Positions 1-16,300 of a DNA stretch of 17,080 bases are shown one piece after another. This DNA is from Gemmatimonadota bacterium (lineage in GTDB: Bacteria; Gemmatimonadota; Gemmatimonadetes; Gemmatimonadales; GWC2-71-9), in the NCBI GenBank assembly GCA_039588295.1, contig JBDHAB010000051.1, positions 1 through 17,080 of the forward strand, written 5' to 3'. The translations under genes and the position numbers were made by a program. The notes beneath the pieces were generated by a model. That model was not told the DNA's origin and ran no database searches. It was given only the letters and a program-made list of their open reading frames with translations. The first letter of the stretch is position 1; each line of letters opens with the position of its first letter.

Positions 1-985
1 GTGCCGAGCCCGTCTGCCCCTCACTCGTTGCCGTGACCGTGGCCGTCCCGGCCCCCTGCGCCGTCACCAGCCCGGACCCGTTCACCGTGGCCACACCACC
101 ATTACTGGTCGACCACGTCACCACCCGCCCACTCAACGCGTTGCCGGCCGCATCCCGCGGCGTCGCCGTCAACTGTTGGCCTGCCCCCACTACCAACGCC
201 ACCGTCGCCGGCGTCACGTCCACACTCGCCACCGAGACCTGGGTGGGAGTCACTGTGACCGTCGACGTCCCACTTTCGCCTTCGGACGCCGCCGTGATCG
301 TAACGGATCCCTCGGCCGCGCCCGAGACCAGCCCGGTCCCGTTGACTGACGCCACACTGGGGGCAGAGCTCGACCATTCCACGGTCCGCCCGGTCAGCTC
401 GTTACCGGACGAGTCCCTCATCGTGGCGGTCAGTCGCACGGTGCTACCGACATCGATCCCCGCACTGCCCGGCACGATCTCGACGGATGCGACTGGCGCT
501 TCCGTCACCGTCACCGTCGTACTGTCACTCAACGAGTCCGCGGTCGCCTTGACTTTGTGACGCCCGGAACGACGGGGTTTGTATAGCCCATGCCCCTTGC
601 CCTTCCCCCTCACCTCCCCACCCTCGGCGCTCCAGACGGCCTCGACCAAGGTCGTGTCACCTTGGGCGGTAAGCCCAACCACGTAGAAGTCAATGGAGTC
701 ACCCATCTGAACGGTGGGATCCTGGGGCCACAGACGCAGCTGCACGATATCACTGTTGTCCGGGGGATTCGTCAGACTACTGTCGTCCGCGCATCCCAGG
801 ACGCCAAGCAGCACCGCCACCACCGGTAGGCTGCGATACCAGGTGCCCCAGGTGTGGGCACGTCGGATTGTCGCAGGAGTATCGTGCTGTCGTGAGGTCT
901 CACCGCCCGCGGCTCGCACGCTTCGGGCCGTGCCGCTGCAGTGGTTGAGGGCCAACCGCTTGGAGAGTTTGTGCTTGTAGGACAT
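1..985 (-). CDS. Ig-like (Big_2) repeat surface lipoprotein, 3'-truncated by the window edge (not in supplied ORF track)
   Basis: Manual translation: ATG at 985-983 with GGAGG 4 nt upstream, open to the edge. MSYKHKLSKRLAL...LPVVAVLLGVLGC (lipobox Cys65, 793-791), then one divergent Ig domain and Big_2 repeats: VASVEIVPGSAGIDVGSTVRLTATMRDSSGNELTGRTVEWSSSAPSVASVNGTGLVSG...TITAASEGESG and VASVDVTP...LTATPRDAAGNALSGRVVTWSTSNGGVATVNGSGLVTAQGAGTATVTATSEGQTGSA. Confidence 0.92.
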   Translation of the reverse strand, partial: MSYKHKLSKRLALNHCSGTARSVRAAGGETSRQHDTPATIRRAHTWGTWYRSLPVVAVLLGVLGCADDSSLTNPPDNSDIVQLRLWPQDPTVQMGDSIDFYVVGLTAQGDTTLVEAVWSAEGGEVRGKGKGHGLYKPRRSGRHKVKATADSLSDSTTVTVTEAPVASVEIVPGSAGIDVGSTVRLTATMRDSSGNELTGRTVEWSSSAPSVASVNGTGLVSGAAEGSVTITAASEGESGTSTVTVTPTQVSVASVDVTPATVALVVGAGQQLTATPRDAAGNALSGRVVTWSTSNGGVATVNGSGLVTAQGAGTATVTATSEGQTGSA

Positions 986-1027
986 GGAACCTCCACGGAA
1001 GCGCCGGACCACCGGCGAATTGCATTT

Positions 1028-1119
1028 CGCTGGCGGCCCGGCGAGCGTGGCAGGTCCCTCCCTGCAGTAGCCCCGTGGCTCTGCGTCACCGCCTTTCGGC
1101 GGCTTTGCTCTGAGCAGCG
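1028..1119 (-). ncRNA. Cyclic dinucleotide riboswitch, c-di-GMP-I/GEMM-I fold, A20 variant
   Basis: Minus strand reads CGCUG CUCAG A GC AAA GCCGCC GAAA GGCGGU GAC GC AGA GCCACGGGGC UACU GCAGG GAGGGA CCUGC CAC GCU CG CCGGGC CG C CAGCG. P1 (CGCUG/CAGCG), P2 with GAAA tetraloop and AAA/GAC internal loop, and P3 all pair. A47, C92 and the C44-G83 equivalents are present. It ends 42 nt upstream of the Ig-like gene ATG. Confidence 0.9.
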
Positions 1120-1529
1120 CCCGACCCGGATAGCCGGATCGGAGTCATGTTCCCTTGCGAGCGCGGTCCTGATTGCTGGTGTGCAGGATCACCGCCCGTT
1201 GTCGTGACTGTACGCCGCGGGACTACCCCCCGCAGTGCCGTTTGTCACAATGACCACGCGCGGTGACTACTCCGCGTTCGAAGTCGTTACATCGGCTTCA
1301 GATGCGAGAGGAGAGCCAGCTCATGAGTCACTCTCGCCGAGTGCATTACCGCTCGATACACCTCCCGATTGGACGCAAAGCTTGGTGACGCAGGTTACAT
1401 CGGTGCCGCCTCAACGACAACCGTGACATTCAACGTACCCGGCTCGCTGGCCACTCACAAAGGGTGGCAGGTATCGGCCTGCGGTATCCCCGTGGCTCTC
1501 CACGTCACCGCAAACCTCGCTCGCGACAC

Positions 1530-2894
1530 TCATGGCAAGTAGCTCATGTAGAACGAATCAACGTACATGTAGCAGGTCCGGTCGAGGCCCGTACCCGCGC
1601 CCGTCCCACCATACACCCATGACCAGGCGAACGTGTCCATTCCCGTTACGCCGGGATCGACGGCGTCCACTTCGAGCGTGCCGTCGATCCACAGCTGCAA
1701 TCGCCCAGTCGAGAAGTTCACAAGAGCCTCAAGATGATACCAAACACCGCCGTTGATGATCTGGCCCGCCGATGCGTTATATGCGTCGGTCGGTTGTGTG
1801 TAGAACCCAATTTGATACGGTGGAAACGAGCTGAGGGCATCACCGCTCCCAAACCGAGTGGAGATGATGGTCGTTCCAACAGGATTGTTGAACAGATTGA
1901 GGTGCTTGAGCTCGTTATCGCCCGTCACGTTCCGGAAATTCGCAGAGTACTTGAAATAGTAGGACAGATACACTGCCTCCGCAGAGCCAGGTGGCACGAG
2001 CTTGTTCGAGGACAACAGCTGATCCACCGACGATCCCATAAGGGGCGGGTCGATATTGGAAGGGTTGAACTCCGTCCGACCAACCGTCGAAGGATTGATG
2101 GGTGCGGTGGCATCCGCAACCGTGGTGCCCCACGTCATGCCGGCGCTTGCGTCCCACCCTATCTCGCTGAACGGCTGCGCGTCCGTCTCGGGCAACGTCT
2201 CGACGAAACTGCCGAAGTCCATGACATACGGCGACGCACCCAGTGGGACGGCCCCAGCGGGCTCGTTGGGATTCTGCACTTGCGGCGGCGTCACCGTCAC
2301 GCTCGCCGAGCCACTCTGCCCCTCGCTCGTCGCCGTGATCGTCGCCGTCCCAAGGGCCAGGCCGCCAACCAGTCCAGTCGCATCCACAGGCGCCACGTCG
2401 GTGTCGGAACTCGACCAACTCACAGCGCGCCCAGTCAGTATGTTCCCCGCCGCATCTTTCAGCGTCGCGGTCAACTGCACCGCGCGACCCACCGACACCG
2501 ACGCCGGGTTCGGCGTTACCTCCACCGTGGCCACTGGCTCCTGCGTCAGGGTCACCGCCACGTCCGACGTCCCACTCTGACCCTCACTCGTTGCCGTGAT
2601 CGTCGCCGCGCCAACCGCCACACCGGTGACCAGGCCATCGTCATCAACCGTCGCCACGTCGGTATTGGAGCTCGACCACTCCACCGTCCTGTCGGTCAAC
2701 GGGATACCATTCGCGTCTCTCGTGACAGCAGTGAGCTGTACGGTACCGCCCACGGTCACCGTAGCCGGCGCCGGCGTCACTTCAACGGACGTCACCGGAT
2801 GCGTATCGGTGACGTCGCCGCAGGCGAGCATCGCCAGGAATCCCAGAACGAGGGTTGCGTCCGAGGCCCAAAATGCTTGGTGTCGTACACGCAT
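1530..2894 (-). CDS. Lipoprotein with two Big_2 Ig-like domains and a C-terminal ConA/jelly-roll (polysaccharide lyase-like or lectin) domain
   Basis: Start placed at ATG 2894 (MRVRHQ...LVLGFLAMLAC lipobox). Two repeats SVEVTP..VGxxVQLTA..D..G..LT.R.V.WSSS.TDVA.VD..GLV..TATITATSEGQSG. C-terminal YLSYYFKYSANF...KHL...WYHLEALVN...GRLQLWIDG is typical of beta-jelly-roll carbohydrate-active domains. Confidence 0.88.
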   Translation of the reverse strand: MRVRHQAFWASDATLVLGFLAMLACGDVTDTHPVTSVEVTPAPATVTVGGTVQLTAVTRDANGIPLTDRTVEWSSSNTDVATVDDDGLVTGVAVGAATITATSEGQSGTSDVAVTLTQEPVATVEVTPNPASVSVGRAVQLTATLKDAAGNILTGRAVSWSSSDTDVAPVDATGLVGGLALGTATITATSEGQSGSASVTVTPPQVQNPNEPAGAVPLGASPYVMDFGSFVETLPETDAQPFSEIGWDASAGMTWGTTVADATAPINPSTVGRTEFNPSNIDPPLMGSSVDQLLSSNKLVPPGSAEAVYLSYYFKYSANFRNVTGDNELKHLNLFNNPVGTTIISTRFGSGDALSSFPPYQIGFYTQPTDAYNASAGQIINGGVWYHLEALVNFSTGRLQLWIDGTLEVDAVDPGVTGMDTFAWSWVYGGTGAGTGLDRTCYMYVDSFYMSYLP

Positions 2895-2986
2895 AGACCC
2901 AACCTTGTGAAGTCTACCGTCAGTTACTGCTGCACACCGCAACCCACCACCCCAACGTTAAGAAATTGCCCCACCTACCCCGATTG

Positions 2987-3091: not shown

Positions 3092-4018
3092 GTGCTAACC
3101 CGAGCCGCCTACACGACCGCACGTCTGTTCCGTCTCCCTGCACTGCTCCGTCGGGTTGCCCGGGGAGCCGTCGTGTTGTGTTACCACAACATCGTCCCCG
3201 ATGAATCCGTTCCCGCTTTCTCACCCGGATCGACAGTCAGCTGGGATCCGGCAATCCACATGAGTCTGGCGCAGTTCGAACGCCAGCTTGGCTGGCTGCG
3301 GAAGACCTTCGATCTCGTGAGCCTCGAGGAGTTGATCACCCGCCTCCGTGCCGGCCGCTCAGTCCGACGCCTCGCGTGCCTAACCTTCGACGACGGGTAC
3401 GTGGGGTTCTTCCGCTGGGCTCTCCCCGTGCTCCGATCGCTGCGGGCCCCAGCTACGGTCTTCCTGGTGGCCGAGGCCCACGAAACACGAGAACCTTTTT
3501 GGTGGGACCATCCCGACATCGTGCGACGCGCGACGCCCGAGCGACGCGATCACTGGCTGACGGACGGGCAAGGAGACCCAGACGTGATCTTCGCGATGGA
3601 GGAGGTAGCGGCGGTCCCCGCCGAGTTGCCCGAGGATCTTCTCCCGGCTTCGCTGGACATGATTCGCCGCCACCTCGGCCCTGACTTGACCGTCGGGGCG
3701 CATACCTGCCGCCACCGCTGCCTGACGACGCTGTCAGATTCCGAGCTGCACTCGGAACTGCAACGCGGCGCTACTCAACTGGCGCATCGCCTCGGCAGTC
3801 GACCACGGTATCTCGCGTACCCGTACGGTGTCTGGGATTCGCGGGTCCGCGATGCCGCACGCGACGCAGCGTACGAGGCCGGCCTGACTCTGGACGCTGG
3901 TCACGTGTCCCAGCGCAGGTCGGACTTCTGGGCATTACCGCGCGTGAACATTCCGGGGGGAATACCAGATGCAGCATTCGAAGGGTGGGTCTCCGGACTC
4001 CTCCCGCCACGCCGCTAG
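3092..4018 (+). CDS. Polysaccharide deacetylase (CE4/NodB homology)
   Basis: LCYHNI, LTFDDGY, GAHTCRH, LAYPYG and LPRV motifs; GTG start. Confidence 0.93.
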   Translation: MLTRAAYTTARLFRLPALLRRVARGAVVLCYHNIVPDESVPAFSPGSTVSWDPAIHMSLAQFERQLGWLRKTFDLVSLEELITRLRAGRSVRRLACLTFDDGYVGFFRWALPVLRSLRAPATVFLVAEAHETREPFWWDHPDIVRRATPERRDHWLTDGQGDPDVIFAMEEVAAVPAELPEDLLPASLDMIRRHLGPDLTVGAHTCRHRCLTTLSDSELHSELQRGATQLAHRLGSRPRYLAYPYGVWDSRVRDAARDAAYEAGLTLDAGHVSQRRSDFWALPRVNIPGGIPDAAFEGWVSGLLPPRR

Positions 4019-4027
4019 CTCACAGTC

Positions 4028-5179
4028 GTGCAGCCTACACTCCCGCCAGGGGCAACGGTAGCCCACCTCATCGAGACCGACGGGCCGGGGGGAGCCGAGC
4101 GCGTGGTCGCGTACCTTGTCTCGCGGCTTGCGGAGCGAGGGTTCCACAACGTCGCGTTATTGCCAGCCAAGGGCGAAGGTTGGCTGGCGGGGCAACTTCC
4201 AAAGGAGCGCGTCGACGTCGTCCCGATCCCGCTGCTGGGCGTGCCGATCCGTCGATCCCTTGCAACTGTCACCGATGCAATCCGGAAGTGCCGGCCTGCC
4301 GTCGTCCACAGCCATGAATTCACCATGTCCGTGCTCGGAGCGGCCGCGTGCTGGCGTCTCAATGTACCTCACATCTTCACGATGCACGGCGGCCGGTATT
4401 ATGCCTCCCGTGTTCACAGGCGAGTCGCAACCGGACTCGCAGCGCGCGCGGCCAGCCAAGTCGTAGCGGTTTCGCACGCGCTGGCGGGACACTTGACGGC
4501 TGACCTATGGCTTACCCGCTCAGCGGTTCGCATCATCCCTAACGGCATCCCGCCCATTCCCAATGTTGTGCCTACACTCCGATCCGAACTAGGCCTGCCG
4601 CGGACGGCGAGGCTCGTCGTCACAGTCGGCAACCTCTACCCGGTGAAGGGCCATGTTCACCTGCTCCGCGCCCTCGCGACTCTCACGGACGCCGCCCTCC
4701 GGGATGTTCATGTCGTAATCGCTGGCCGTGGGGCTGAGGAACAATCGCTCCGCGACCTTGCTCACATGCTCGGGATCGGAGATCGGCTTCATCTGCTAGG
4801 GCTACGAAAGGACATACCGAACATCCTGCGTTCGGCGGATGTCTTCGTGCTTCCGTCGCTCTCGGAGGCGCTTCCGCTTGCCCTGCTCGAAGCCATGCGC
4901 GCGGGGCGCCCGATCGTGGCAAGTTCTGTCGGTGAAATCCCGCGCGTGCTAGAGGGCGGCCGGGCCGGTCTCTTGGTGCCGCCTGGGGACCACGAGCCCC
5001 TCGCTCAAGCGCTGGCGCAGCTACTCACTGACCCAGGTGGGGCAGCAGCACTCGCTGCGCGCGCCAGCATCGTGGCCCAGGAGCAATATGACCTCGAAGG
5101 GATGCTGGATCGCTACATCGAGCTGTACGCCGCGGCATTGGGCGACGCTCGTACACCCCCACGCCTACCTCCGTTGTGA
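4028..5179 (+). CDS. Glycosyltransferase family 4 (GT-B)
   Basis: GGAER, VVHSH, HGG, IPNGI, VGNLYPVKG, ADVFVLPSLSEALPLALLEAM (EX7E), VGEIP. Confidence 0.95.
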   Translation: MQPTLPPGATVAHLIETDGPGGAERVVAYLVSRLAERGFHNVALLPAKGEGWLAGQLPKERVDVVPIPLLGVPIRRSLATVTDAIRKCRPAVVHSHEFTMSVLGAAACWRLNVPHIFTMHGGRYYASRVHRRVATGLAARAASQVVAVSHALAGHLTADLWLTRSAVRIIPNGIPPIPNVVPTLRSELGLPRTARLVVTVGNLYPVKGHVHLLRALATLTDAALRDVHVVIAGRGAEEQSLRDLAHMLGIGDRLHLLGLRKDIPNILRSADVFVLPSLSEALPLALLEAMRAGRPIVASSVGEIPRVLEGGRAGLLVPPGDHEPLAQALAQLLTDPGGAAALAARASIVAQEQYDLEGMLDRYIELYAAALGDARTPPRLPPL

Positions 5180-6573
5180 CGAGCGCTCAAGCGCTGAGTG
5201 CCATTTCCGGTTAGAACGAGGATGCCCACCGCCAACGCCGCGAGGAAGTAGACCGGATCCAGGTAGGCGAAGGAGACGAACGATCCCGAGACGGCGAACC
5301 CAAACGCCGCAAGTGGCACGTACCGCGCAGCGTGGTAGACCACGCGCTCGTCAAAACTGCCCCGTGACCAGAGACGCGACAGCCGCCGCCCGCGCCGGCC
5401 GATGGACCAAATCACTCCGACTACCAGCGTACTCCAGAGCGCCAGACCGACCACGCCCATCTCAACGCCTGCCTGCAAAAACGAATTGTGGGGCGAGGTC
5501 CAGGCTACCCCGGCGTCACCCGGCCGCCACTCCCGGGCGATGCTCGACATCGTTCCTTCAACCCTCCCGAAGTTGCTGGCACCGACGCCGAATATCGGAT
5601 ACGAAGCCATGTATCCGAGCCCCCGCTCAAACACCGCCTTTCGGCCATACTCGGAAGTCCAGTTGTAGTCCGTCTGGGGCGAGAGTATCGATTGCATCTG
5701 CTTCCAATACCCCTGCGGACTCGCCAGACCCAGCATCACTGCAGTCACAGCGATGAATCCCATCCGCTTCGCGAGCGGCACCGAATCCACGAGGACGACG
5801 ATCGCCAGACCAAGGGCAACGAGTCCGACAAAAGCTCCTCGCGAGCCCGTTTTTGCCAGCGTCATGCCAATCCCAAGAATGATGGCGAGGCTCACGATCT
5901 TTCCCAGGGCGCGGGACATCTGAAACGTGTAAAGGGCAAGTGCCAGTCCTATGAGCAGAACGACCCCGATATCATTCGCGTCGTAGGTGGTATTGAATCC
6001 ACCCAGGCGCTGAAAGGTACTGTCCCAGGCCGTCTCGAATTGGCCAGTTAGCAGGGTGTCTCCGACCAGTATTCCCACCGCGATGACATACGCCCAGATG
6101 TACATGTGGACATCATGGCTGGACCGAATCGTGGCCATGATGAGAAAGGCGACGAGGAGCACCTTGCTATACTCTTGCAGAATGAACAAGCCGGTACTGC
6201 CGAGAGATACTCCGAACACAGCCGAAAGACACGCGGCCACTCCAAGGGCCATGACGAGGCGTGCAGGCCAGGTCTGGACCCACGGAAGTCGACTGAGAAG
6301 GCGCGGATTCACGAGCGCATAAGCAAGGGAGGCACCCGAAAGCAAGAGCAGGGGCCGAAGTGGGATCAGAAACGGAAACTTGCCGTTGATCCGGCTGATC
6401 GTCATCACGACCAGGAGGAACAAGGACCACCGCAGCGGGTCAGCGGGTAGGAATCCTCGAGTGCCCGCGGGTGCGCCGGCGGGGGCACGCCGGATGCCGG
6501 GATCCTCAGCTCCCACGATCGGTGCGGCCCCGGCCACGCGGCTCATGACCCGCGGCCCTGGGCGGGCCCTCAT
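5113..6573 (-). CDS. O-antigen ligase / Wzy-like polymerase family membrane protein
   Basis: Many hydrophobic segments; DANDIG, TGSRGAFVG, YGRKAVF, PIFGVGASNF, SPHNSFLQAGVEMGVVGL. Start placed at ATG 6573, which overlaps the DegT stop (ATGA); alternative ATG at 6546. Confidence 0.9.
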   Translation of the reverse strand: MRARPGPRVMSRVAGAAPIVGAEDPGIRRAPAGAPAGTRGFLPADPLRWSLFLLVVMTISRINGKFPFLIPLRPLLLLSGASLAYALVNPRLLSRLPWVQTWPARLVMALGVAACLSAVFGVSLGSTGLFILQEYSKVLLVAFLIMATIRSSHDVHMYIWAYVIAVGILVGDTLLTGQFETAWDSTFQRLGGFNTTYDANDIGVVLLIGLALALYTFQMSRALGKIVSLAIILGIGMTLAKTGSRGAFVGLVALGLAIVVLVDSVPLAKRMGFIAVTAVMLGLASPQGYWKQMQSILSPQTDYNWTSEYGRKAVFERGLGYMASYPIFGVGASNFGRVEGTMSSIAREWRPGDAGVAWTSPHNSFLQAGVEMGVVGLALWSTLVVGVIWSIGRRGRRLSRLWSRGSFDERVVYHAARYVPLAAFGFAVSGSFVSFAYLDPVYFLAALAVGILVLTGNGTQRLSARHNGGRRGGVRASPNAAAYSSM

Positions 6574-7844
6574 GTCTGCCTGCCCGTCGCGTGGATCCAT
6601 TCTACGAGTCGCCGTGCATCCATTTCGGCAACCATCTTGTGCGTAGGCATCGTGAAGAGTGTCTGAGCGAGCTCGCAGGCACCAGGGAAGCCGTCCCCGA
6701 GGTTGCGACAGTGCGGTCGCATTTGTGGGAGATCACTTAGCGCCAGCGGATATGCCCTCGCGATCCCTAGTCTCACCGCACCCGAGCCTTGTGCTGCCAG
6801 CGAGGTTCTCCGAGAGCATCGGAACGGGAGCCGCAGAAATGAGGGCGACGCCTGACCCGGCACCCCTATCGGCTGCAGGTCTGACGCTTCGTTCAAGTGG
6901 CTGACAAGTGTCTGCGCCGTGGAACGTCGCCACTCCGTCTCCTCCTCGTTCAGCGACATGGTCACGGCGAGAATACGCGGCACGAAAGAAGATGCCCGCG
7001 CCGGCGGGTTCGGTGCTCTGAAGACTGTCTCGCCCAAGTGCAGGAATGGCATACTATACGGTAGCCAATACAGCCGCGGACGGCCAAGGAGCCACTGGGC
7101 ACACAACGCCGCGAGGTCCGCCCACTGTGAGACACCAGAGCGCCGCGGCAGGGATTCCCACCCAACGGGTCTCGCAGGACTGCGTTGCAGCAGTGCCCCG
7201 CCCCGCCCTGCCGTCACCCCTTTTCCTCGGCCAAAGCTCAAGACCGTTACGTCGCCGAGGCTTCCCGCCGGCTCACCTGACCAGGAGGCACCGATCGCCT
7301 GGGCCGCATCCTCGATGACGGTCACGTCAGCTGGATCCACGAGCTCACGCACCGAGGCAACATCCACCGGATAGCCGAACAGGTGGACCAGAACGACGGC
7401 CTGGGGACGCCGGCGCAGGGTCGCCCTGAGCGAGCCTTCATCAGGAGCGAGCGTCGACGGATCGAGGTCGTAGAGCACCACATCTACACCAGCTCCGAGG
7501 GCCGCAGTAGCAAGATCGTAGCACGTGTAGGCGGGCATCGCGACCAAAGGCCGTGTTCCTTTGACCTGAGCCTTCACTGCGGACAGGGCCAAGGTCAGTG
7601 CGGACGTTCCGGAATCGGTAAGCACCGCAGTGTGGCAGCTGAAACGCCGCTTGATCTCATCCGCACCGACCTCCGCAGTCGCTCGATCGTGTTGCGCACC
7701 CGCCTCAAACGCTGCCCTTATGGCCCGCCACGTAATGGGAGAGTAGGCCGGTAGTTGCTGTCTCAAGACCAGGATGAGGCTCCACGTGTGCGAAGTTGGA
7801 ACGCGAGACCGGCTCCGTCCCCACAGCGTCGCGTCACGGACCAA
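6570..7844 (-). CDS. DegT/DnrJ/EryC1/StrS family PLP-dependent sugar aminotransferase
   Basis: TDSGTSAL, PAYTC, VHLFG, IEDAAQAIG, SFGRGKG (PLP lysine). The true start may be the TTG at 7766 (LRQQLPAYSP). Confidence 0.9.
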   Translation of the reverse strand: MVRDATLWGRSRSRVPTSHTWSLILVLRQQLPAYSPITWRAIRAAFEAGAQHDRATAEVGADEIKRRFSCHTAVLTDSGTSALTLALSAVKAQVKGTRPLVAMPAYTCYDLATAALGAGVDVVLYDLDPSTLAPDEGSLRATLRRRPQAVVLVHLFGYPVDVASVRELVDPADVTVIEDAAQAIGASWSGEPAGSLGDVTVLSFGRGKGVTAGRGGALLQRSPARPVGWESLPRRSGVSQWADLAALCAQWLLGRPRLYWLPYSMPFLHLGETVFRAPNPPARASSFVPRILAVTMSLNEEETEWRRSTAQTLVSHLNEASDLQPIGVPGQASPSFLRLPFRCSRRTSLAAQGSGAVRLGIARAYPLALSDLPQMRPHCRNLGDGFPGACELAQTLFTMPTHKMVAEMDARRLVEWIHATGRQT

Positions 7845-7852
7845 TAGTGGGT

Positions 7853-8974
7853 CTATGGCTCTGCCCTCTCTGGGACAGTGCTGTGGGTGGTATCGGGCAC
7901 CAGCCGAACGAATTGCCCCGCCACAAAACGTGCGAATCGATCAGCACCTGCGGCGTTGAAGTGCACGGCATCTCCCTCCGCATACAGCTCGGGCCCTACG
8001 ATCGAGGACGCGGCGCCGTCTATGAGCGGAATCGCGTGCCTCTGAGCAACCGCTCGAATCCGCGCGTTGAAACGGCGGTACCCCTCCAGGGCCACGGACG
8101 GTGGCACGCCCGGCATAGTGTTCGCCCAACTCCGGGTTGCCAACTCCGATCGAGGAACGCTGTCGCCACTCGAGACATGCGTAACGGTCATCAGTACGAC
8201 CAGAATCCCCCGGGCGCGCGCCACCGCTACAAAGCTCTCCAGGTCCCGCTCAAAGCGCGCGCCACCTTTGTTCAGCACGTCGTCCCAATCCGGAGCCGGA
8301 CCACTGGCTTCTCGCTCCCGCCGTCCCCTGAACCGCAGAGCTTTTATCCGGCCAGCGACCTTCGCGTACAACAGCGAGTGCTCTTCGAGCCAGGCCCTCC
8401 ACGGGGTAACAGTCCCCCATTGGTCCGGCCGGTGCCTATCTCGGGACACATCGGCGGATGATCGGGCGAAAGCACTGAACAGGTCGTTGTGTGCTTGATA
8501 GAGCAGTATGGCATCGGGTTGGAAATCGGCGAGGTCCGTTTCGAGGCGGATCAAGTTGTCCACCACGTCGTAACCCGAGACTCCAGCGTTCAGCACACTA
8601 CCCGAGAACCCCGCCTCTTCTTTCCGCAGCCAGGCCTCGAGACGGGCTGGCCACGTCTCCAGGTCGGGAGAGACCGCGGTGTCGAACGTGGTGGAGCCAC
8701 CAAGAACGAGAATGATCGGTCGCCCTCCGGCACGCCGTTGGCCGTCATCCGTCCATCGGAAGCCGGCGGTGTCCGTTCGAAACCACCCAAAGTACGAAAA
8801 GTCCCGGACGAGCGCGTGGCCCAATCGAGCGTGGCGATAGTACAGGGTGGGCATGATGCCAGGTACCGTGCTCCGGTTGCGCTCCCGGTACCGCACAACG
8901 GCCTCTCCGAGCACACAGGAAAGCACCAGCGAAAGACCAAGCACGCCGACGAACGCACCCGTGCGCCGTTTCAT
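7853..8974 (-). CDS. Membrane-anchored SGNH/GDSL hydrolase-fold protein (candidate acyl/carbamoyl transferase)
   Basis: N-terminal MKRR plus hydrophobic anchor; LGGSTTF (Ser), NAGVSGY, AHND, DAVHF; purine-rich SD immediately upstream. Confidence 0.9.
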   Translation of the reverse strand: MKRRTGAFVGVLGLSLVLSCVLGEAVVRYRERNRSTVPGIMPTLYYRHARLGHALVRDFSYFGWFRTDTAGFRWTDDGQRRAGGRPIILVLGGSTTFDTAVSPDLETWPARLEAWLRKEEAGFSGSVLNAGVSGYDVVDNLIRLETDLADFQPDAILLYQAHNDLFSAFARSSADVSRDRHRPDQWGTVTPWRAWLEEHSLLYAKVAGRIKALRFRGRREREASGPAPDWDDVLNKGGARFERDLESFVAVARARGILVVLMTVTHVSSGDSVPRSELATRSWANTMPGVPPSVALEGYRRFNARIRAVAQRHAIPLIDGAASSIVGPELYAEGDAVHFNAAGADRFARFVAGQFVRLVPDTTHSTVPERAEP

Positions 8975-9334
8975 TCACCCCCCTTGAGTGGTGGATCTCC
9001 GTGGCCTTGCGGCAGAATGAACCCGCCTCGCCGCCTTTCACGGCTGCTTCGCCCTTGGGTCTGGTTTCCGGTACCAGCCCACTCAGGCACCGTCGGACCG
9101 GCCGCCCGACCGCAGTCACTTCCCAGGCGGTCACCGGGCTGCGCGGCTCGTGCTCCAGTTCCCGGCACCATCCGACGGCTCAGCATATTCGTGGAGTCAA
9201 TCGTCACGACCGGTGACGTACGGCAACGCGTGAGACCCCCACCCGGTCGAGTAGTCCGCGATTGGCCACGGCGACCACTCGGCACCGGAATCCGGGCCCG
9301 ACGCTTCCAACAGCCATCAGGCTCCGTCTAGCCC

Positions 9335-9487
9335 TCAGAAGATCGTATAGATGAACGGCGCCAGCGCCGACCCCTGCGCGAAGACAAGCAGCGCCCCGAC
9401 CATCACCATCACCACAACGATCGGCAGCAACCACCATTTCTTCCTGACCTTCATGAACTGCCAAAACTCACTGACCAAGCTCGCCAT
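9335..9487 (-). CDS. DUF5989 / SxtK-like 50-aa single-TM microprotein (not in supplied ORF track)
   Basis: MASLVSEFWQFMKVRKKWWLLPIVVVMVMVGALLVFAQGSALAPFIYTIF*; GGGGAG SD; RKKWWLLP and APFIYT.F signatures; 12 nt after the SxtJ-like stop. Confidence 0.92.
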   Translation of the reverse strand: MASLVSEFWQFMKVRKKWWLLPIVVVMVMVGALLVFAQGSALAPFIYTIF

Positions 9488-9499
9488 AGGGCTCCCCGT

Positions 9500-9901
9500 T
9501 TAGAACTGGTTCGTCAGGCTGCCGCGGCGAGACTCGGCATGCGGCGCCCAGTAGCTATCGCCCCTCGGGTGGTGCCTGATGGGATTTCGTCCCACGGCCC
9601 GCATCAGGAGGCCGATAGGCATGATGACGATGAAGTAGACGATGCTGAGAAAGATCGGCGTGGTCACCTTCGAAATCGCGTGGGCCAGCCCCATCCACCC
9701 GCGGTAGACCGGCCCCAAGCGACCCGGTACGACGAGCCCCCCAATCCACAGCCCACCACCAATCACCGCCAGCACGCGGGCGACGGTGATGTGATCCCGC
9801 CACCACGTGAGGGCCGTAAGCGCCAGAAAGGCCGTTCCTACCGTAAGCGCGAACTTCCTGCCTTCGGCAGGCGTCAATCGAGTTGGAATTCGCTGCGCCA
9901 A
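9500..9901 (-). CDS. SxtJ-family membrane protein
   Basis: TTG start at 9901 with AAGGAG SD (alternative ATG 9919). GRKFALTVG, LGPVYRGWMGLAHAISKVTTPIFLSIVYFIVIMPIGLLMR..GRNP, SYW, C-terminal NQF. Overlaps the carbamoyltransferase 3' end. Confidence 0.9.
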   Translation of the reverse strand: MAQRIPTRLTPAEGRKFALTVGTAFLALTALTWWRDHITVARVLAVIGGGLWIGGLVVPGRLGPVYRGWMGLAHAISKVTTPIFLSIVYFIVIMPIGLLMRAVGRNPIRHHPRGDSYWAPHAESRRGSLTNQF

Positions 9902-11700
9902 TCTCCCGTCTCCTTCCATTCCGGCTGCTTGGCTTTGTCTACCAGGAACGGTCCCAACACCAGAAAGTCGATGTGGGTCCGCATGAAGCAACGATAGGCG
10001 TCTTCCGGCGAGCACACGATGGGCTCGCCGCGCACGTTGAACGAGGTATTGACCACGACACTGCACCCCGTAAGGCGCTCGAACTCGCTGATGAGATCGT
10101 AGTAGTCCGGGTTGGTGTCGTGCGACACCGTCTGGACCCGCGCCGAATAGTCCACGTGCGTGATCGCCGGTATGTCCGACTTCGGGACATTGAGCAGGTC
10201 TATCCCCCAGAGCTGCTCCTGCTGCTCCGTAAGGGCGATCCGCCGCTGCTGGTGCACGGGTGCGACCAGGAGCATGTACGGCGAGTCACAGTCCATCTCG
10301 AAGTAGTCGCTCACGCGCTCGCGCAGCACGCTCGGCGCGAACGGGCGAAAGCCCTCACGGAATTTGATCTTGAGGTTCATCTGGGCCTGCATACGCGGGC
10401 TGCGGGGATCGCCAAGAATGCTCCTGTTTCCGAGGGCTCGCGGGCCGAATTCCATCCGACCGTTGAACCACCCAACGATTCTCTCGTCTGCGAGGATTCC
10501 GGCCACGCGCTGCAACAACTCGTCCCGGCCCAGGCGTTCGTAGACCGTTCCCTGGGCCTTCAGGTAGGACTCGATCTCGGCGTCCGTGAACTCGGGGCCG
10601 AGATAGGAACCGCGCATCTGGTCGCATCCGTTCGGGGCACGCGGCTGTTGGCAGTGGCGGTGCCAGATCAGCTGCGCTACACCCAGCGCCCCACCGGCGT
10701 CACCTGCAGCCGGCTGGATCCAGATCTCCTCAAACGGTCCCTCCCGCAGGATCCGCCCGTTGCCGACGCAGTTCAGGGCGACTCCGCCCGCCAGACAGAG
10801 CCTGTCGAGCCCGGTCTCGCGATGCGCCGTCCGGACCATGCGGAGCATGATCTCTTCGCACACCTCCTGCACGGAGCGCGCGAGGTCCATCTCGCGCTGG
10901 GTCAGCTTGGTCTCCGGCTCACGCGGCGGCCCGTCGAATAGGTCGTCGAAGGCCCCGTTTGTCATGGTGAGACCGGTCAGGTAGTTGAAGTAATCCTGGT
11001 TGACGCGGAACGAGCCGTCTTCACGCAGATCGATCAAGTGCTCGTAAATGCGGTCCACGTACTTGGGACGCCCGTACGGGGCGAGTCCCATGACCTTGTA
11101 CTCACCCGAGTTCACCTTGAAACCGGTGAAGTAGGTAAACGCCGAGTACAGCAGCCCCAGCGAATCCGGCCACTGCAACTCCCGCAGGATCTCGATGTCG
11201 TTGTTACGCCCCACTCCGATCGTCGCCGTGGCCCACTCACCCACCCCGTCCATCGTCACAATCACTGCCTCTTGGAACGGCGAGGGAAGGAAAGCGCTGG
11301 CGGCGTGGGACGCGTGATGCTCCGCATAGAGCAGCTCCCCCTCGTAACCGCCCAGCGACCTGCGTAGCTCTCGGTCGAGGAACAGCTTCTCCTTCATCCA
11401 CACTGGCCCGGCCTTCAGAAACTGGGAGAAGCCCCGGGGGGTGACGCCAAGATAGGACTCGAGGATGCGCTCGAACTTGAGGAGCGGCTTGTCATAGAAC
11501 CCGACGTAGTCGAGATCACCGACCCCAATACCCCCGGCACGAAGGCAGTAGTCCACCGCGTGCTGGGGAAATGAGGAGTCACCCTTCTTTCGCGTGAAGC
11601 GCTCTTCCTGTGCCGCCGCGACGATCTCACCGTCGCGCAGCAGGCAGGCAGCGCTGTCGTGGTAAAACGCGGAAATACCGAGAATCAACCGATGCGTCAT
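9874..11700 (-). CDS. O-carbamoyltransferase (NodU/CmcH/TobZ/SxtI family)
   Basis: ILGISAFYHDSAA, EERFTRKK, HHASH, DGVGE, GEYKVMGLAPYG, LAGGVALNC, PAAGDAG, EFGPRALGNRS, KFREGFRPFAP, THVDYSARVQTV, NTSFNVRGEPIV. Confidence 0.97.
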   Translation of the reverse strand: MTHRLILGISAFYHDSAACLLRDGEIVAAAQEERFTRKKGDSSFPQHAVDYCLRAGGIGVGDLDYVGFYDKPLLKFERILESYLGVTPRGFSQFLKAGPVWMKEKLFLDRELRRSLGGYEGELLYAEHHASHAASAFLPSPFQEAVIVTMDGVGEWATATIGVGRNNDIEILRELQWPDSLGLLYSAFTYFTGFKVNSGEYKVMGLAPYGRPKYVDRIYEHLIDLREDGSFRVNQDYFNYLTGLTMTNGAFDDLFDGPPREPETKLTQREMDLARSVQEVCEEIMLRMVRTAHRETGLDRLCLAGGVALNCVGNGRILREGPFEEIWIQPAAGDAGGALGVAQLIWHRHCQQPRAPNGCDQMRGSYLGPEFTDAEIESYLKAQGTVYERLGRDELLQRVAGILADERIVGWFNGRMEFGPRALGNRSILGDPRSPRMQAQMNLKIKFREGFRPFAPSVLRERVSDYFEMDCDSPYMLLVAPVHQQRRIALTEQQEQLWGIDLLNVPKSDIPAITHVDYSARVQTVSHDTNPDYYDLISEFERLTGCSVVVNTSFNVRGEPIVCSPEDAYRCFMRTHIDFLVLGPFLVDKAKQPEWKETGDWRSEFQLD

Positions 11701-12036
11701 AGCCCCCAGCCAGAAGCAAAACGTACGCCTCGTGAGCCCTTCGGCCTAACCCGTTGCAAACAGTAGCCCTACCAGTCGCCAGCCTAGTCTCAGCCTGTTT
11801 CTGCCCGACCTTGTGTTGCATGCTGGCCACAGGTCACGTTGCTCATGCGATCTCTCACTCTGCCGTCATCCAGCCCTCGGGTCAACTTCGCCCTGGGGGC
11901 GGCCCTAGCACGGCCCGCCTTCGCCTGCGGCACCGCAGGCCCCATGCCACATGGGCACGGCTCGACCGGGGAGCCCCTTGTCCCAACGGCGAAGCGCCCC
12001 ACTGGCGCTGAGGCCTCACCGCCTGGGATGAGGTTG

Positions 12037-12051
12037 GGGCACACATTCTGC
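12037..12051 (+). promoter_or_regulatory. Candidate sigma54 -24/-12 promoter
   Basis: GGGCAC-ACATT-CTGC with exact GG-N10-GC spacing, 58 nt before the GTG at 12109. Confidence 0.45.
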
Positions 12052-12108
12052 GAGTGCGCGCCACATACCGGCCGTTCATTACCCGCCCTCACGCAGGCAG
12101 GCACGCTC

Positions 12109-13365
12109 GTGGAAATCGCATCCAGGGTGAAGCGCCTTCTCCTCAGAACTGCACTGTACGCGGGCATCACCGCAGCCACCCTCGGGCTCGTGGACCTCGT
12201 CTGCATGCTGTTCGGTTTCTTCCCTCCCATCCATGACTACGGGGATCCCGACGTGGGCTGGGTTGGCTTCTCCCCGACCGGTGAGATGCATACGGACTGG
12301 TGTGTTCAGTACGCGACAGGAGACACAATTTCGTTCATCCGCAACGAGGACGGGATTCGCACCCACGTCGGCGTCGATGCGCTGCTGACCGACCAACAAG
12401 CCCTCAAGATCGCAGTGACGGGCGATTCCCAAACAGAGCTTTGCGCACCGAACGCAGAGACACATGCTGGATTCCTCGAGAGCTCACTGAACGCGAATGG
12501 CACCAGGACAGTGGTCCTGCCGTACGGCGCTGGACGATACTCCCCGTTGCAGGACTATCTGGTGTTCAAGGCCAGGCTCAAGAAGTTCGAGCCCGACGCG
12601 TTGGTATTGAATCTCTATACGGGCAACGACTTCTATGACCTGCTGCGCGTCGACGACCGCCCGTACTTCGACGCTTCAGACGCCGGGTACCAAATCGCCG
12701 AGCCCACCTGGTACCTGTACGACGATCCCCGCATCGTCCGGCGGAGCCGCGTTCTCTTCGCACTGCGATCACTCGCGAAGCAGACGGGGGTACGCGGGCT
12801 CTACCTCCGGCTCCGGGTCCTGCACAGATCCGCCACTGAGCAGGGGGCCGGACTTCGGTCCGTGGTCGCCTACATGAACGATCTGCGGAAGTCGGTCGAG
12901 CCCACCGTAGGCTACCCTGAGGCGTTTTCCGCCCAAGTGCTAAACCAGCAGCTCTTCTTCCACCACTTCCCCGCGGCGCGAGAGGAAAGCTTCCGGCGGG
13001 TGGTGGCATTACTTGAGCTCGTTCGCGCGGAGAATCCCGGCATGCTGCTCGTCATGAGCCTGATTCCCTCGTATCAACTAGCCCAACAACGCCCGGTCGA
13101 CGACGCATTGCATCGGGTGCTCGAGCGGCTGCCCATCACTTACGAAGGTGGGGTGCGAGAGGAGCAGGAGCTGTACGACGCGGTACGGTACCTCGCAGAA
13201 GAACACGGATGGCTGGTCGTCGACAACCTGCGCGGGTTGCGGGAGTACGACGGGTCGGATCGGCTGTACAACGACTTCGACTACCACCTTCTGCCCGTGG
13301 CCAGCGAAATCATCGGACGGCAGCAAGCCGCAGTAATCCTTCAGGCGCCGAGGCACCCCGAATGA
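12109..13365 (+). CDS. Membrane-anchored SGNH-fold protein (AlgJ/AlgX/DltD-like candidate acyltransferase)
   Basis: Start re-placed at GTG 12109 (or 12127). KRLLLR plus TM helix; VTGDSQTE, GAGRYSP, YTGNDFYD, DYH (DxH). Confidence 0.85.
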   Translation: MEIASRVKRLLLRTALYAGITAATLGLVDLVCMLFGFFPPIHDYGDPDVGWVGFSPTGEMHTDWCVQYATGDTISFIRNEDGIRTHVGVDALLTDQQALKIAVTGDSQTELCAPNAETHAGFLESSLNANGTRTVVLPYGAGRYSPLQDYLVFKARLKKFEPDALVLNLYTGNDFYDLLRVDDRPYFDASDAGYQIAEPTWYLYDDPRIVRRSRVLFALRSLAKQTGVRGLYLRLRVLHRSATEQGAGLRSVVAYMNDLRKSVEPTVGYPEAFSAQVLNQQLFFHHFPAAREESFRRVVALLELVRAENPGMLLVMSLIPSYQLAQQRPVDDALHRVLERLPITYEGGVREEQELYDAVRYLAEEHGWLVVDNLRGLREYDGSDRLYNDFDYHLLPVASEIIGRQQAAVILQAPRHPE

Positions 13366-13584
13366 CCGCGGCGCCCGCGTCGCTCCGCTCCAGCCGTGTT
13401 CCCAACTCCGCAGCCACTCGGTATCAGGCAATTCGGGTCACGCTACGAGGGGCGAACCGTGGGCCAGTTACTAAGCGCTCTTGACGATCTCATTTCGAGG
13501 GGCCTCAACACGTCACCTACCGACCGGCCGTTGCGTTGTTGCATGGTTGCAACAGCATAGGATTGAGAGGATGGGGCCGGTGGC

Positions 13585-13600
13585 TGGCACCGGTTGTGCT
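13585..13600 (+). promoter_or_regulatory. Candidate sigma54 -24/-12 promoter
   Basis: TGGCAC-CGGTT-GTGCT with GG-N10-GC spacing, about 50 nt before the GNAT ATG. Confidence 0.6.
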
Positions 13601-13650
13601 GACGGCATTCCATTGATGCCCTTACCTCGTGCGGAGGGGCCTTAACCGGC

Positions 13651-14745
13651 ATGAGTTCACCCGCAAACGTCCGATCGCCGTCCCGCGTGACCATCCGGGA
13701 GCGCCCCGATCCGTGGTGCAGCCAGTTTGAGGCTGAGCTCGATGCGGCGGGCATTCCCGTCGCCCTGCCTCATCGAGGCTCCTGGGCGTCGGCCCTCGGC
13801 CGCGGTCAAAAGCTCTTTGTTGGCGTCGCGGAGGACGCCGGGTGGCCGCGCTACGGATGTGGAGTGGACCTCGTTCCCCTTCGCAGCCTGCCCGGACACA
13901 CGGTCTACCGGATCGAGCGGTTCGGGAACAGCCCAGACAGCGCTGCTTGCGATGCAGCGCTTCGAGCGGTGACGGAGTACGCCCGCACGCATCCTCACGT
14001 GCTGCGCATCGAACTCGAGACCTTCGCGAGCGAGCCGGCAGTGCTAGAGCGCCTCGAACAAGCGGCCCGTGCCGCGGGGTTCACACCGTGCCTGCCCCCC
14101 CGACGCTACACCCACACCTTGCGGCTCGACCTGCACCGTAGCCGCGACGAAATCTTCAAGGCCCTGGGCCGGACCGCGCGCCGCAATCTCCGCTCAGCAA
14201 CGAAGGCCGGGGCCCAAGTCCACAAGATCAATGATCCGGCACTGGCGCCAGCGCTCGCTGCGCTCGAGCGGAAGGCGTTCGCCCGAACCGGTGGCCACGC
14301 GCACCCCACCAACTGGCCGGACCTCATGCAGTTTTGCCGCGATCATCCCCACCTGGCTCGGATCGTCGGGCTCTTCACGAGCGACGGCTGTTCTTCAGCG
14401 GACCTCCTTGGTTTCGCGGTTGCGCGCGCGCACGGCGACCATGTGGAGTACGCAAGCGCCGGTACCGTACGCCGGCCGGGTCTGAACATCCCGATGGGTT
14501 ACCCCCTTCTCTGGCATCTCATCGAATGGGCGAACGAGCTTGGCGTGGCATGGTTCGACTTCGGCGGCATCACTGGCGGCACGACCCGCGACGGCAAGGA
14601 CGCGTTGGGAGGCATCTCGGACTTCAAGCGCTACTTCGGGGGAAGCGAGATCGAAGTGGGCGGCGAATGGGTGCTCCACGTGCGCCCGGTGCGCTCCAGA
14701 GTCGCCAACACGGTCGCGCGCGTCGCTCAGGTCTTCCGCACCTAG
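13651..14745 (+). CDS. FemAB-like GNAT-fold acyl/aminoacyl transferase
   Basis: TLRLDL..SRDEIFKALGRTARRNLRSA.KAG, YPLLWHLIEWA..GVAWFDFGG, GISDFKRYFGG. Confidence 0.88.
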   Translation: MSSPANVRSPSRVTIRERPDPWCSQFEAELDAAGIPVALPHRGSWASALGRGQKLFVGVAEDAGWPRYGCGVDLVPLRSLPGHTVYRIERFGNSPDSAACDAALRAVTEYARTHPHVLRIELETFASEPAVLERLEQAARAAGFTPCLPPRRYTHTLRLDLHRSRDEIFKALGRTARRNLRSATKAGAQVHKINDPALAPALAALERKAFARTGGHAHPTNWPDLMQFCRDHPHLARIVGLFTSDGCSSADLLGFAVARAHGDHVEYASAGTVRRPGLNIPMGYPLLWHLIEWANELGVAWFDFGGITGGTTRDGKDALGGISDFKRYFGGSEIEVGGEWVLHVRPVRSRVANTVARVAQVFRT

Positions 14746-14774
14746 GAAGCCGCCCCAGCCCAAAGCACAGCATG

Positions 14775-14806
14775 AAAACAGGCCCGGCAGGGTTGCCGGG
14801 CCTGTT
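14775..14806 (-). terminator. Intrinsic terminator for the PEP-CTERM gene (possibly bidirectional)
   Basis: Perfect 13-bp inverted repeat AACAGGCCCGGCA-gggt-TGCCGGGCCTGTT ending in UUUU on the minus strand, between convergent genes. Confidence 0.85.
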
Positions 14807-14837
14807 GAGTCACATCACAGGCGCAAGCCGACGAAGT

Positions 14838-15557
14838 CTAGGCGTCGATCCCCTTCTTCCGCCGACGCCGCAGCAGCCCCACACCACCCATGCTGGCTAG
14901 CCCGCTGCCTAGGAGCGCGATGGTGAATGGCTCTGGAACGGCGGTGCACGGCCCGTAGTCGCCGTAGCCACCGGTGTCGCACTTCAGAGACTCTTCGTAA
15001 TCGGGGCCGACCTGCTGCGAGTGCCAGCGAAGCTCGAAGTCCTCCGCCGACATCGTGCTCCGGTCCCAGCCACTGAGCTGGAACTTGAACTCGACGTACG
15101 GCGTACCGGGGAACGAATTGCAGGTGAGCCACTTAGTTCCGCCCGGCAACTGCGTGCACCCGTTGATGCCGTCGTTGCCGCTAGTCCCAGTGCTCAGCTG
15201 CAGGTTTACACTGCCCAGGGTCTTGATGTCGTCCGCGGGGTCAGACCAGGACCCAGTGATGTCGGCGTCGGTAACGCCGTCCACATACGTGGCCGACCGA
15301 TAGGCGCCTGTTCCGCTCCAAGCACCCGTGTGGTAGAGGCCGATCGAGGTGATCGTGTGCGTACTTCCGTAGGTCCCTTCGAGGTTCCACACCTGCATCG
15401 TCAAATTGCCCGTGGCGGAGACATTGATCCGAACACTCGCGCAGACCACGAACGCATCATTGATACAGTAGTTGTCCCAGGCAAAACCGTCCGCTTGTGC
15501 GGGCGCGGACCATACCAAGAGAAGGCCTGTGAGACCGAACGCCAGTCGCTTCCGCAT
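14838..15557 (-). CDS. PEP-CTERM sorting-domain protein (239 aa)
   Basis: Start re-placed at ATG 15557 (MRKRLAFGLTGLLLVWSAPAQA, Sec signal peptide). C-terminus VPEP-FTIALLGSGLASMGGVGLL-RRRRKK. Six Cys; Ser/Thr/Gly-rich. Confidence 0.95.
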   Translation of the reverse strand: MRKRLAFGLTGLLLVWSAPAQADGFAWDNYCINDAFVVCASVRINVSATGNLTMQVWNLEGTYGSTHTITSIGLYHTGAWSGTGAYRSATYVDGVTDADITGSWSDPADDIKTLGSVNLQLSTGTSGNDGINGCTQLPGGTKWLTCNSFPGTPYVEFKFQLSGWDRSTMSAEDFELRWHSQQVGPDYEESLKCDTGGYGDYGPCTAVPEPFTIALLGSGLASMGGVGLLRRRRKKGIDA

Positions 15558-15619
15558 CGTTTTCACCCCGGAGACAGAGTCGAGAGTCGGAGTTGGAATT
15601 CGCCGTACTGTCGCATTCC

Positions 15620-15634
15620 GCAGGAGCCGTGCCA
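15620..15634 (-). promoter_or_regulatory. sigma54 -24/-12 promoter of the PEP-CTERM gene
   Basis: TGGCACG-GCTC-CTGC, 63 nt upstream of the ATG. PEP-CTERM genes are known to be preceded by sigma54 sites. Confidence 0.75.
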
Positions 15635-15659
15635 GCAAACTCGTTCCCGAACTAGACCC

Positions 15660-15684
15660 TAAGCCATTGCAGGACAATGTGTTG
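15660..15684. promoter_or_regulatory. Inverted pair of IHF-like sites upstream of the sigma54 promoter
   Basis: TAAGCCATTG-CAGGA-CAATGTGTTG; each arm matches the CAA-N4-TTR core of the IHF consensus. Confidence 0.4.
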
Positions 15685-15793
15685 CAGAATCCTGGGGCGG
15701 ACGTCGCCGGTCCGAAGACGTGTCGCGACGGCCACAACCCGGTCCCTGCGCCACAGCCCCCCGCCACACCACCACCTCTTGGGCCAGCCTCTG

Positions 15794-16300
15794 TCACCGA
15801 CCAGCGCGGCGAACATGCCGTAGCGCCAGCCACCCCGCCACGACATACGATCCCGGGAAAGCCAGCGCTAGGACGGTCGTCTTGACGATCGCCTTCTTGA
15901 TACCGAGTTGAGGGACGCCCTCCACCGCACCCAACGCCATGGGCACGGTGGTCAGGAATACTGCGAAACCCACGTACAACAGGAGCGCGAACCCGAGGAG
16001 ACCGACGGCGAGGACCACGATCTGCCACCGCATGCCACGCGCGACTGCCGAGGCGATGAGCGCAAGCAGCCCCATCGTGGGCAGGGGGAGGCCGGAATAC
16101 GAGGCGGTGACGGTGCCAAACTCCCACTCCGGGCTCCCCCAATTCATGGGATACCAGGCCAGCGCGAAGTCCGCGAGTCCGACCACGGCTAGCACGAGGC
16201 CGAACCATCCGATCCAGCGCCAAGCCGTACCGATGTCCGGCGCAAGCACTCGGTCCCGTTTCTTAGCACCCTCTTGCACGAGCACCTGGCGCTCAGGCAT
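15794..16300 (-). CDS. Four-TM membrane protein, HpsJ-like
   Basis: ATG 16300 with GGAGG SD (alternative 16315). Hydrophobic helices flank WYPMNWGSPEWEFGTVTASYSGLPLPTMGLLAL. Confidence 0.8.
   Translation of the reverse strand: MPERQVLVQEGAKKRDRVLAPDIGTAWRWIGWFGLVLAVVGLADFALAWYPMNWGSPEWEFGTVTASYSGLPLPTMGLLALIASAVARGMRWQIVVLAVGLLGFALLLYVGFAVFLTTVPMALGAVEGVPQLGIKKAIVKTTVLALAFPGSYVVAGWLALRHVRRAGR

Follow-up and report, generated by a model that had tools for sequence, protein, structure and literature searches.

A candidate 3′,3′-cGAMP-responsive, probably bispecific GEMM-I ON switch upstream of an Ig-like lipoprotein gene in Gemmatimonadales

A minus-strand GEMM-I aptamer in the 5′ leader of an Ig-like lipoprotein gene of a Gemmatimonadales bacterium carries adenine at position 20. 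Names of the organisms that carry close homologues put the source within this order. This locus raises the question of which ligand the RNA reads, 3′,3′-cGAMP, c-di-GMP or both, and which enzymes of the source genome (G000) could make and remove it. Taken in aggregate, the data favor a cGAMP-capable, probably bispecific ON switch within a Gemmatimonadales 3′,3′-cGAMP circuit, to which we assign a probability of roughly 0.5.

Identity and architecture of the aptamer

A cmscan of the window (the whole 17,080-nt stretch of DNA analyzed) against Rfam returns a single family above its cut-off, RF01051 (c-di-GMP-I), at 1029-1119 on the minus strand. The match covers the full model length and, at 57.5 bits, exceeds the gathering score of 35; two weaker clan matches in the window were suppressed. 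The sequence-only reading of this DNA had proposed a complete GEMM-I fold and a covariance-model search as its check; the match bears the fold out, and a real riboswitch at 1028..1119 (-) is practically certain. All 25 modelled pairs of the 1119-1028 aptamer are standard pairs, and the features of GEMM-I membership are present: P1, P2, P3, a GNRA tetraloop, A47, C92, and a 5′ leader position with a predicted expression platform. The folding energy of the aptamer alone is unremarkable (z = -0.57).

The sequence and the Rfam alignment place the elements as follows. P1 consists of five base pairs, CGCUG (1119-1115) with CAGCG (1032-1028); the P2 arm spans 1083..1108 (-), with its GAAA tetraloop at 1097-1094 and G21-C46 (G1108-C1083) as its first pair; and the P3 arm spans 1035..1081 (-). 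P1 and the tetraloop are as first described from sequence, and the proposed pairs G55-C85 and G58-C80 are consistent with the alignment, in a Vc2 numbering that beyond G20 and C92 is in part presumed. A stable 9-bp hairpin without a U tract is predicted to abut the 5′ end of the aptamer at 1121..1142 (-).

The pocket bases were also correctly assigned from sequence. Reading the minus strand against the alignment gives A20 at 1109, A47 at 1082 and C92 at 1033. A20 faces the α nucleobase of the ligand and C92 is the Watson-Crick partner of the ligand Gβ (PMC6140456), and A47 stacks between the two ligand bases, as A41 does in Gs1761 (PMC6274999). Position 20 is thus A1109 and not the G20 of canonical c-di-GMP-selective GEMM-I aptamers; A20 is the sequence mark of GEMM-Ib. 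The C15-G40 first P2 pair of Gs1761, a feature of the type example rather than an established mark of GEMM-Ib, is absent. The tetraloop receptor CUAC...CAYG, which had been described as altered, is shared by G20 aptamers of Gemmatimonadales.

An A20/G48 subtype with compensatory changes

GEMM-I matches occur in 42 of 61 related genomes and comprise 90 aptamers, 51 with A20 and 39 with G20 as read at a fixed offset in the model. Within this set, 22 copies form a subtype to which the window copy belongs, defined by A20, G48 and a GCUG-type P1, and mostly carrying a GAAA loop. The J2/3 sequence AGA had been described as altered. However, G48 is accompanied by C90 in all 22 copies, and A48 by U90 in 55 of 68. 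Because of this linkage, and because a matching pair, A42-U73, opens P3 in Gs1761 (PMC6274999), the AGA most likely reflects a compensatory G48-C90 pair (1081 with 1035) at the base of P3 and not a defect of the pocket.

Across the 22 copies, 97.8% of cells pair and nine of the 25 pairs are changed on both sides. None of 500 shuffles reaches this level, which is not a p-value as the 22 sequences are related, and slid controls give 24-53%. Full pairing of G14-C17 with G48-C51 is possible in 17 of the 22 subtype copies and in none of the 29 other A20 or 39 G20 copies; within this one clade, the pairing may represent a helix of the ligand-free state.

The sequence-only reading had also suggested a search of the genome for further A20 copies. 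One more was found, at C16:39046-39136 (54.5 bits), which belongs to the same subtype, differs from the window copy at 5 of 92 positions and retains every modelled pair. A third match to a loose pattern, at C19:2755, lacks the P2 hairpin and an Rfam match and was discarded. By loose pattern, the subtype is present in 21 of 151 genomes of the phylum, 18 of them within the family, with zero control matches; within the source genus it is patchy (four of nine genomes). Several of the counts for relatives include genomes flagged as unpublished (G021, G129, G067 and G091), and no conclusion rests on any one of these alone.

The genes 3′ of subtype copies mostly encode exported proteins with Ig-like repeats, as judged from translations read by eye. 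Many of these proteins, including that of the window (985-950), have a common N-terminal motif before the signal peptide, resembling M-P-F-T-F-K-L-S-x-R-L-A or F-K-H-K-L-S-x-R-L-A, which is possibly an export or translation-coupling signal. A second A20 subtype, with a GYGA loop and A48-U90 (L031, L034, L063, L070 and others), is found across family f1 and mostly lies 5′ of small STAS-like proteins, again identified by eye. One A20 aptamer, G045:C3:2425071-2425146 (L060 / L202), immediately precedes a GGDEF gene with Asp348, which may point to feedback or cross-talk.

A predicted expression platform

Downstream of the aptamer, at 1002..1017 (-), an anti-aptamer strand can pair with 1042-1028, which includes C92 and the 3′ strand of P1. 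The window copy scores 26 for this pairing, above the 99th percentile of shuffled sequences (23), a mark exceeded by only 13 of 23 copies. The fold of 960-1160 has z = -4.8 relative to shuffles. No U tract follows the strand, and after the window copy neither an intrinsic terminator on the minus strand nor a sigma-70 promoter match was found. In many relatives, probably most, the same competing helix precedes U-rich tails and would act as a terminator; the pilM cGAMP ON switch has the same layout of mutually exclusive terminator and aptamer (PMC9262584). The four copies folded from the source genus lack a U tract, their helix extends in the direction of the Shine-Dalgarno sequence, and translation seems to be the level at which they act.

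In the predicted ligand-free fold of the window copy, the Shine-Dalgarno GGAGG at 990..994 (-) is paired to the P3 strand. Opening of the ribosome site is modelled to cost 15.6-17.9 kcal/mol in the free RNA and 7.1-11.4 kcal/mol when the aptamer is locked. The corresponding gain is 5-9 kcal/mol in G004, 1.4-3.4 kcal/mol in the C16 copy and 0-2.4 kcal/mol in G003, for which it is near zero at longer folding windows. Translational control in the ON direction is likely from these models, and the competing downstream strand likewise points to an ON switch. Without ligand, 1017-1002 would pair with the 3′ half of the aptamer and bury C92; the resulting helix would extend over the Shine-Dalgarno sequence, and the freed 5′ strand could pair G14-C17 with G48-C51. 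Ligand binding would lock P1 and the base of P3 and loosen the ribosome site, such that the Ig-like lipoprotein would be made.

The regulated gene and its polysaccharide locus

The initiation codon (ATG, 985-983) lies 43 nt downstream of the aptamer and opens a gene at 1..985 (-) that is cut by the contig end. The product has Big_2 Ig-like repeats (Pfam, E 2e-28) and, by eye, a lipobox-like VLGC whose Cys65 is encoded at 793-791. The window begins with 29 bases that overlap exactly with the end of contig C16, and an open frame on that contig could supply the missing part of the truncated gene, which probably continues on C16:49200-50267. On the basis of this overlap and the fitting frame, the two switches probably belong to a single polysaccharide locus, separated by about 12 kb, and each lies 5′ of a Big_2 lipoprotein gene.

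Upstream, the gene at 1530..2942 (-) encodes a Big_2 paralogue whose C-terminal part weakly matches a ConA/LamG-like domain, and the cmscan of the window finds no riboswitch before it. Its ConA-like C-terminal domain closely resembles that encoded at C16:49200-50267, suggesting that this gene and the regulated gene arose by tandem duplication. Another paralogue, C16:37216-39003, terminates with a weak match to polysaccharide lyase 14 (E 0.002). Domain matches identify a polysaccharide cluster at 3092..15640, with a deacetylase, GT4, Wzy_C, a DegT aminotransferase, GDSL, a carbamoyltransferase, a FemAB-like protein and PEP-CTERM. The proposal of a surface lipoprotein within an EPS/PEP-CTERM locus is upheld by these assignments: the Big_2 gene is directly 3′ of the aptamer and the cluster is beside it. 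At 14838-16315, a PEP-CTERM protein above the TIGR02595 cut-off adjoins a weakly matched HpsJ-like protein. A search for loci based on the lipoprotein gave four, and in each of them the flank searched lacks the aptamer pattern.

Candidate cGAMP enzymes in the source genome

Hypr GGDEF enzymes are recognized by Ser or Thr at position 348, a GGDE[F/Y] motif and usually a residue other than Arg at 304 (PMC6456294). The sequence-only reading had directed attention to such enzymes and to CD-NTases, and neither turned up in G000, which is 96% complete. None of its nine GGDEF matches has Ser/Thr348, and five have Asp348 with GGDEF/GGEEF-type motifs. Searches for SMODS, DncV-like and AGS_C families gave no match, one of these searches having lacked a positive control, and a CD-NTase was dropped as the source of cGAMP.

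One protein of G000 stands out. Encoded at C42:6742-8466 (-) (L008:1441-3165), it joins Fer4, Fe_hyd_lg_C and FeS domains to a GGDEF domain with Tyr304, Asn348 and an intact GGDEF motif; the motif and the non-Arg 304 fit the Hypr signature, and Asn occupies the Ser/Thr348 position. The best PDB match of this domain is GacA (6D9M), which two canonical controls rank 6th and 8th; the rank is weak evidence, because a canonical Ser348 relative does not place GacA first either. A single-sequence structural model (pLDDT 58.8) was not used. Proteins of this type occur in 33 of 36 family relatives and in none of 24 genomes of two sister families. Among the best 120 of 1972 homologues, position 348 is Asn in 110, Ser in ten and Asp in none; position 304 is Tyr or Phe in 118 and Arg in none; and the GGDEF motif is kept in 119. 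The ten Ser348 cases need two changes on the tree, and Ser348 is also present in the orthologues of G027, G131 and G139. As the amide of Asn both gives and takes a hydrogen bond, Asn348 could accept adenine. This Fe-S-sensor GGDEF is a candidate new type of cGAMP synthase. The available portion of PMC6456294 does not discuss Asn348, and a literature search found no paper on Asn348 in Hypr enzymes. An HD-GYP with RxxR is encoded two genes downstream.

Removal of cGAMP would require a phosphodiesterase. RxxQ is a signature of cGAMP phosphodiesterases and, together with RxxN, is present in 4.69% of domains (10.1101/600031). Read by eye, two of the ten HD-GYPs of G000 have RxxQ and so fit the PmxA type by sequence: C6:111307-112497 (RPHQ) and C52:817-2625 (RAYQ), the latter with a degenerate HHE motif. 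By our own arithmetic, two in ten has a chance of ~0.08 at the 4.69% rate. In the proposed circuit, cGAMP would be made by the C42 Fe-S-sensor GGDEF and removed by the C6 HD-GYP. The receiver-like GGDDF protein G000:C18:4296-5243, with counterparts in 55 of the 61 genomes from the order, has Asp348; it was considered as a second Hypr enzyme like GSU1937 (PMC8835794) and rejected, Asp348 being present in all 30 orthologues read from those 55 genomes.

Hypr-signature cyclases across the family

The suggestion that this lineage could carry Hypr machinery is borne out at the level of the family. A Ser/Thr348 GGDEF pattern occurs in 23 of 151 genomes of the phylum, with canonical Ser348 Hypr GGDEFs in 21 of 74 genomes of the family and none in the 31 of f2. 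The GGDEF motif is present in each of the 26 matches, and residue 304 is Tyr or His in 25 of them. MASE1-GGDEF proteins, likewise carrying Tyr or His at 304, make up most of the Ser348 matches; G000 has no full-length orthologue of these proteins, and they (L220-L252, e.g. L222:445-1851) are found in Gemmatimonadales families f1 and f3.

Within the family, Ser348 is present in 14 of 18 genomes with the A20/G48 subtype and in seven of 57 without it (Fisher p 4e-7 by genome, 0.005 by genus). This was rejected as proof of a link, because it is not significant when tested on a tree. The tree comprises 58 Fe-S GGDEF orthologues, a set picked to include positives and leaving out genomes without the marker gene; on it, the co-occurrence comes mostly from a single 19-member clade together with G159, and independent pairs number 1.7 in the same direction, 0.0 in the opposite direction and 3.2 with no difference. 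Ser/Thr348 is found in none of the nine genomes of the source genus, though four have the subtype. In three genomes of 99-100% completeness with A20 aptamers (G037, G039 and G045), none of the intact GGDEFs read was Hypr-like (30 of 37 matches were read over four genomes). One of these, G039 (99% complete), carries the subtype twice, and its seven GGDEF matches include no intact Hypr-like domain; in both G039 and G043 the subtype is present and no Ser/Thr348 or Asn348 pattern was found. In f3, Ser348 occurs in six of 12 genomes and a GEMM-I match in only one of 12.

In several Ser348 genomes the subtype is expanded to 3-7 copies. In three Ser348-bearing genomes, an A20/G48 switch lies 5′ of a G20 aptamer at no fewer than six tandem loci among the matches listed (150 of 231). 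Because of a common linker, these mixed tandems count as one origin. One possibility would be a two-ligand AND gate.

Ligand preference and competing explanations

The G20A change in Vc2 lowers the KD for cGAMP from 10 µM to 120 nM, with c-di-GMP at 53 nM, and the aptamer becomes bispecific; the natural A20 aptamer Cbe 1-2 prefers c-di-GMP (30 nM, against 463 nM for cGAMP) (PMC6140456). Gs1761 has C15-G40 at the first P2 pair (PMC6274999), and changes in lower P2 affect selectivity (PMC9262584). G21 is kept in 89 of the 90 aptamers of relatives, and the window copy retains the Vc2-type G21-C46. Judged by the behavior of A20 in Vc2 and Cbe 1-2 together with G21-C46, useful binding of cGAMP in vitro is to be expected with good confidence, and the aptamer is probably bispecific rather than strictly selective. 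A20 alone does not settle the ligand, since 51 of the 90 aptamers have it, including those of near-complete genomes with no Hypr cyclase among the GGDEFs read. The original proposal of cGAMP or dual signaling is partly supported, the dual option being more likely than strict selectivity for cGAMP; the chance that cGAMP is the signal in the source organism is about even.

The cGAMP circuit is favored by cGAMP binding of A20 Vc2, the Ser348 GGDEFs of the family and their co-occurrence with the subtype, the GacA rank and the lack of Asp348 and Arg304 among the best 120 homologues of the C42 protein, the RxxQ HD-GYPs, the A20/G20 tandems and the opening costs of the ribosome site. It is weakened by the lack of Ser/Thr348 in the genus, the one-clade origin of the co-occurrence, G039 and the mismatch in f3, and also by the ~0.08 chance for RxxQ, the degenerate HHE motif of C52 and the small gains in C16 and G003. 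The main rival is a c-di-GMP ON switch in vivo, an explanation only somewhat short of even odds. Here, A20 would merely lower or tune affinity, with protonated A20 binding Gα; the genus would make no cGAMP, the Asn348 enzyme would be a diguanylate cyclase or inactive, and the subtype, patchy in its genus, may have arrived with the polysaccharide locus. In favor of this explanation, c-di-GMP typically controls surface lipoproteins encoded next to polysaccharide genes. Consistent with it are the five Asp348 GGDEFs of G000, the spread of A20 through the order, including G037, G039 and G045, the near-universal G21, unlike the C15-G40 of Gs1761, and the tighter binding of c-di-GMP than of cGAMP by Cbe 1-2 and Vc2 G20A (PMC6140456). 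It does not account readily for Fe-S GGDEF homologues that keep the GGDEF motif without Asp348 or Arg304, for an RxxQ HD-GYP in G000, for the 3-7 subtype copies in several Ser348 genomes, or for the retention of A20/G20 tandems.

A switch strictly selective for cGAMP, as Gs1761 or Gm0970 are (>1000-fold), would be a narrow form of the favored explanation and is improbable. The fixation of A20 in the subtype, the association with Ser348 genomes and the exclusion of terminator and aptamer, as in the pilM cGAMP ON switch (PMC9262584), are in line with it; the missing C15-G40 orientation and the presence of the subtype in G039 and G043 are not. Least probable is that the RNA senses some other nucleotide, for instance c-di-AMP, or is a dead relic. 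G000 does have one DAC protein and no c-di-AMP riboswitch match, but C92 is kept and needs G at the β site, and a relic is at odds with two copies that keep every modelled pair despite five differences and with the conserved competing helix.

The favored explanation, a cGAMP-capable and probably bispecific ON switch, can be extended to the whole family, an extension that is tentative and rather doubtful. The family would have its own Hypr-type cGAMP pathway, with MASE1-GGDEF Ser348 proteins and near-universal Fe-S Asn348 GGDEFs as writers, the latter a new cGAMP-synthase signature and probably gated by redox or oxygen; RxxQ HD-GYPs as erasers; and an A20/G48 regulon that turns on Ig-like lipoproteins in polysaccharide loci, in places through a cGAMP AND c-di-GMP gate with a G20 aptamer.

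Relation to known systems

This RNA represents a new subtype within a well-known family, in which A20 copies are themselves common. It shares its fold, GAAA tetraloop, A47, C92 and G21-C46 with Vc2 and RF01051, and differs in its natural A20, G48-C90 in place of A48-U90 and a GC-rich 5-bp P1. With the GEMM-Ib aptamers of Geobacter (Gs1761, Gm0970, pilM) it shares A20 and, with pilM, the predicted ON mechanism, with C92 and P1 sequestered by a strand further downstream (PMC9262584). In contrast to them, its first P2 pair is G-C (C-G in Gs1761), it lacks a U tract, its genome lacks a Ser348 cyclase, and it comes from a different phylum. Cbe 1-2 of Clostridium beijerinckii, a natural bispecific aptamer, is similar as a natural A20 aptamer outside Geobacter, whereas the Gemmatimonadales family holds Hypr-signature cyclases. 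The C42 protein resembles GacA (GSU1658 / Gmet_1914, PDB 6D9M) in Tyr304 and the GGDEF motif, and some orthologues in Ser348; it differs in the Asn348 of most orthologues and in its Fer4, Fe_hyd_lg_C and FeS sensor, GacA having receiver and GAF-type domains according to the PDB title.

Hypr enzymes are already known beyond Geobacter, as Bd0367 (PMC9302825) and Cabther_A1065, named in PMC6456294. A literature search found no paper that places cGAMP signaling or Hypr enzymes in Gemmatimonadota, although the supplementary lists of the founding papers may contain such sequences. The candidate circuit around the RNA, rather than the RNA itself, is the part that matters: a single family, within a phylum abundant in soils and sediments, combines cyclases of Hypr signature with candidate cGAMP phosphodiesterases and an expanded regulon of A20 switches. 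Should Asn348 allow cGAMP to be made, searches for Hypr enzymes by the Ser/Thr rule would undercount them, and the Fe-S sensor would tie cGAMP to redox state.

Tandem arrangements of A20 aptamers have a precedent in Desulfobacca, where one in tandem with AdoCbl was probed (PMC9481103). Here, the tandem loci are L277-L282 and L288 (G178, G141, G120 and G124), with the A20/G48 member a terminator switch; G124 has an A20-A20-G20 array, and G094 has two triple A20/G48 tandems (L283 and L284).
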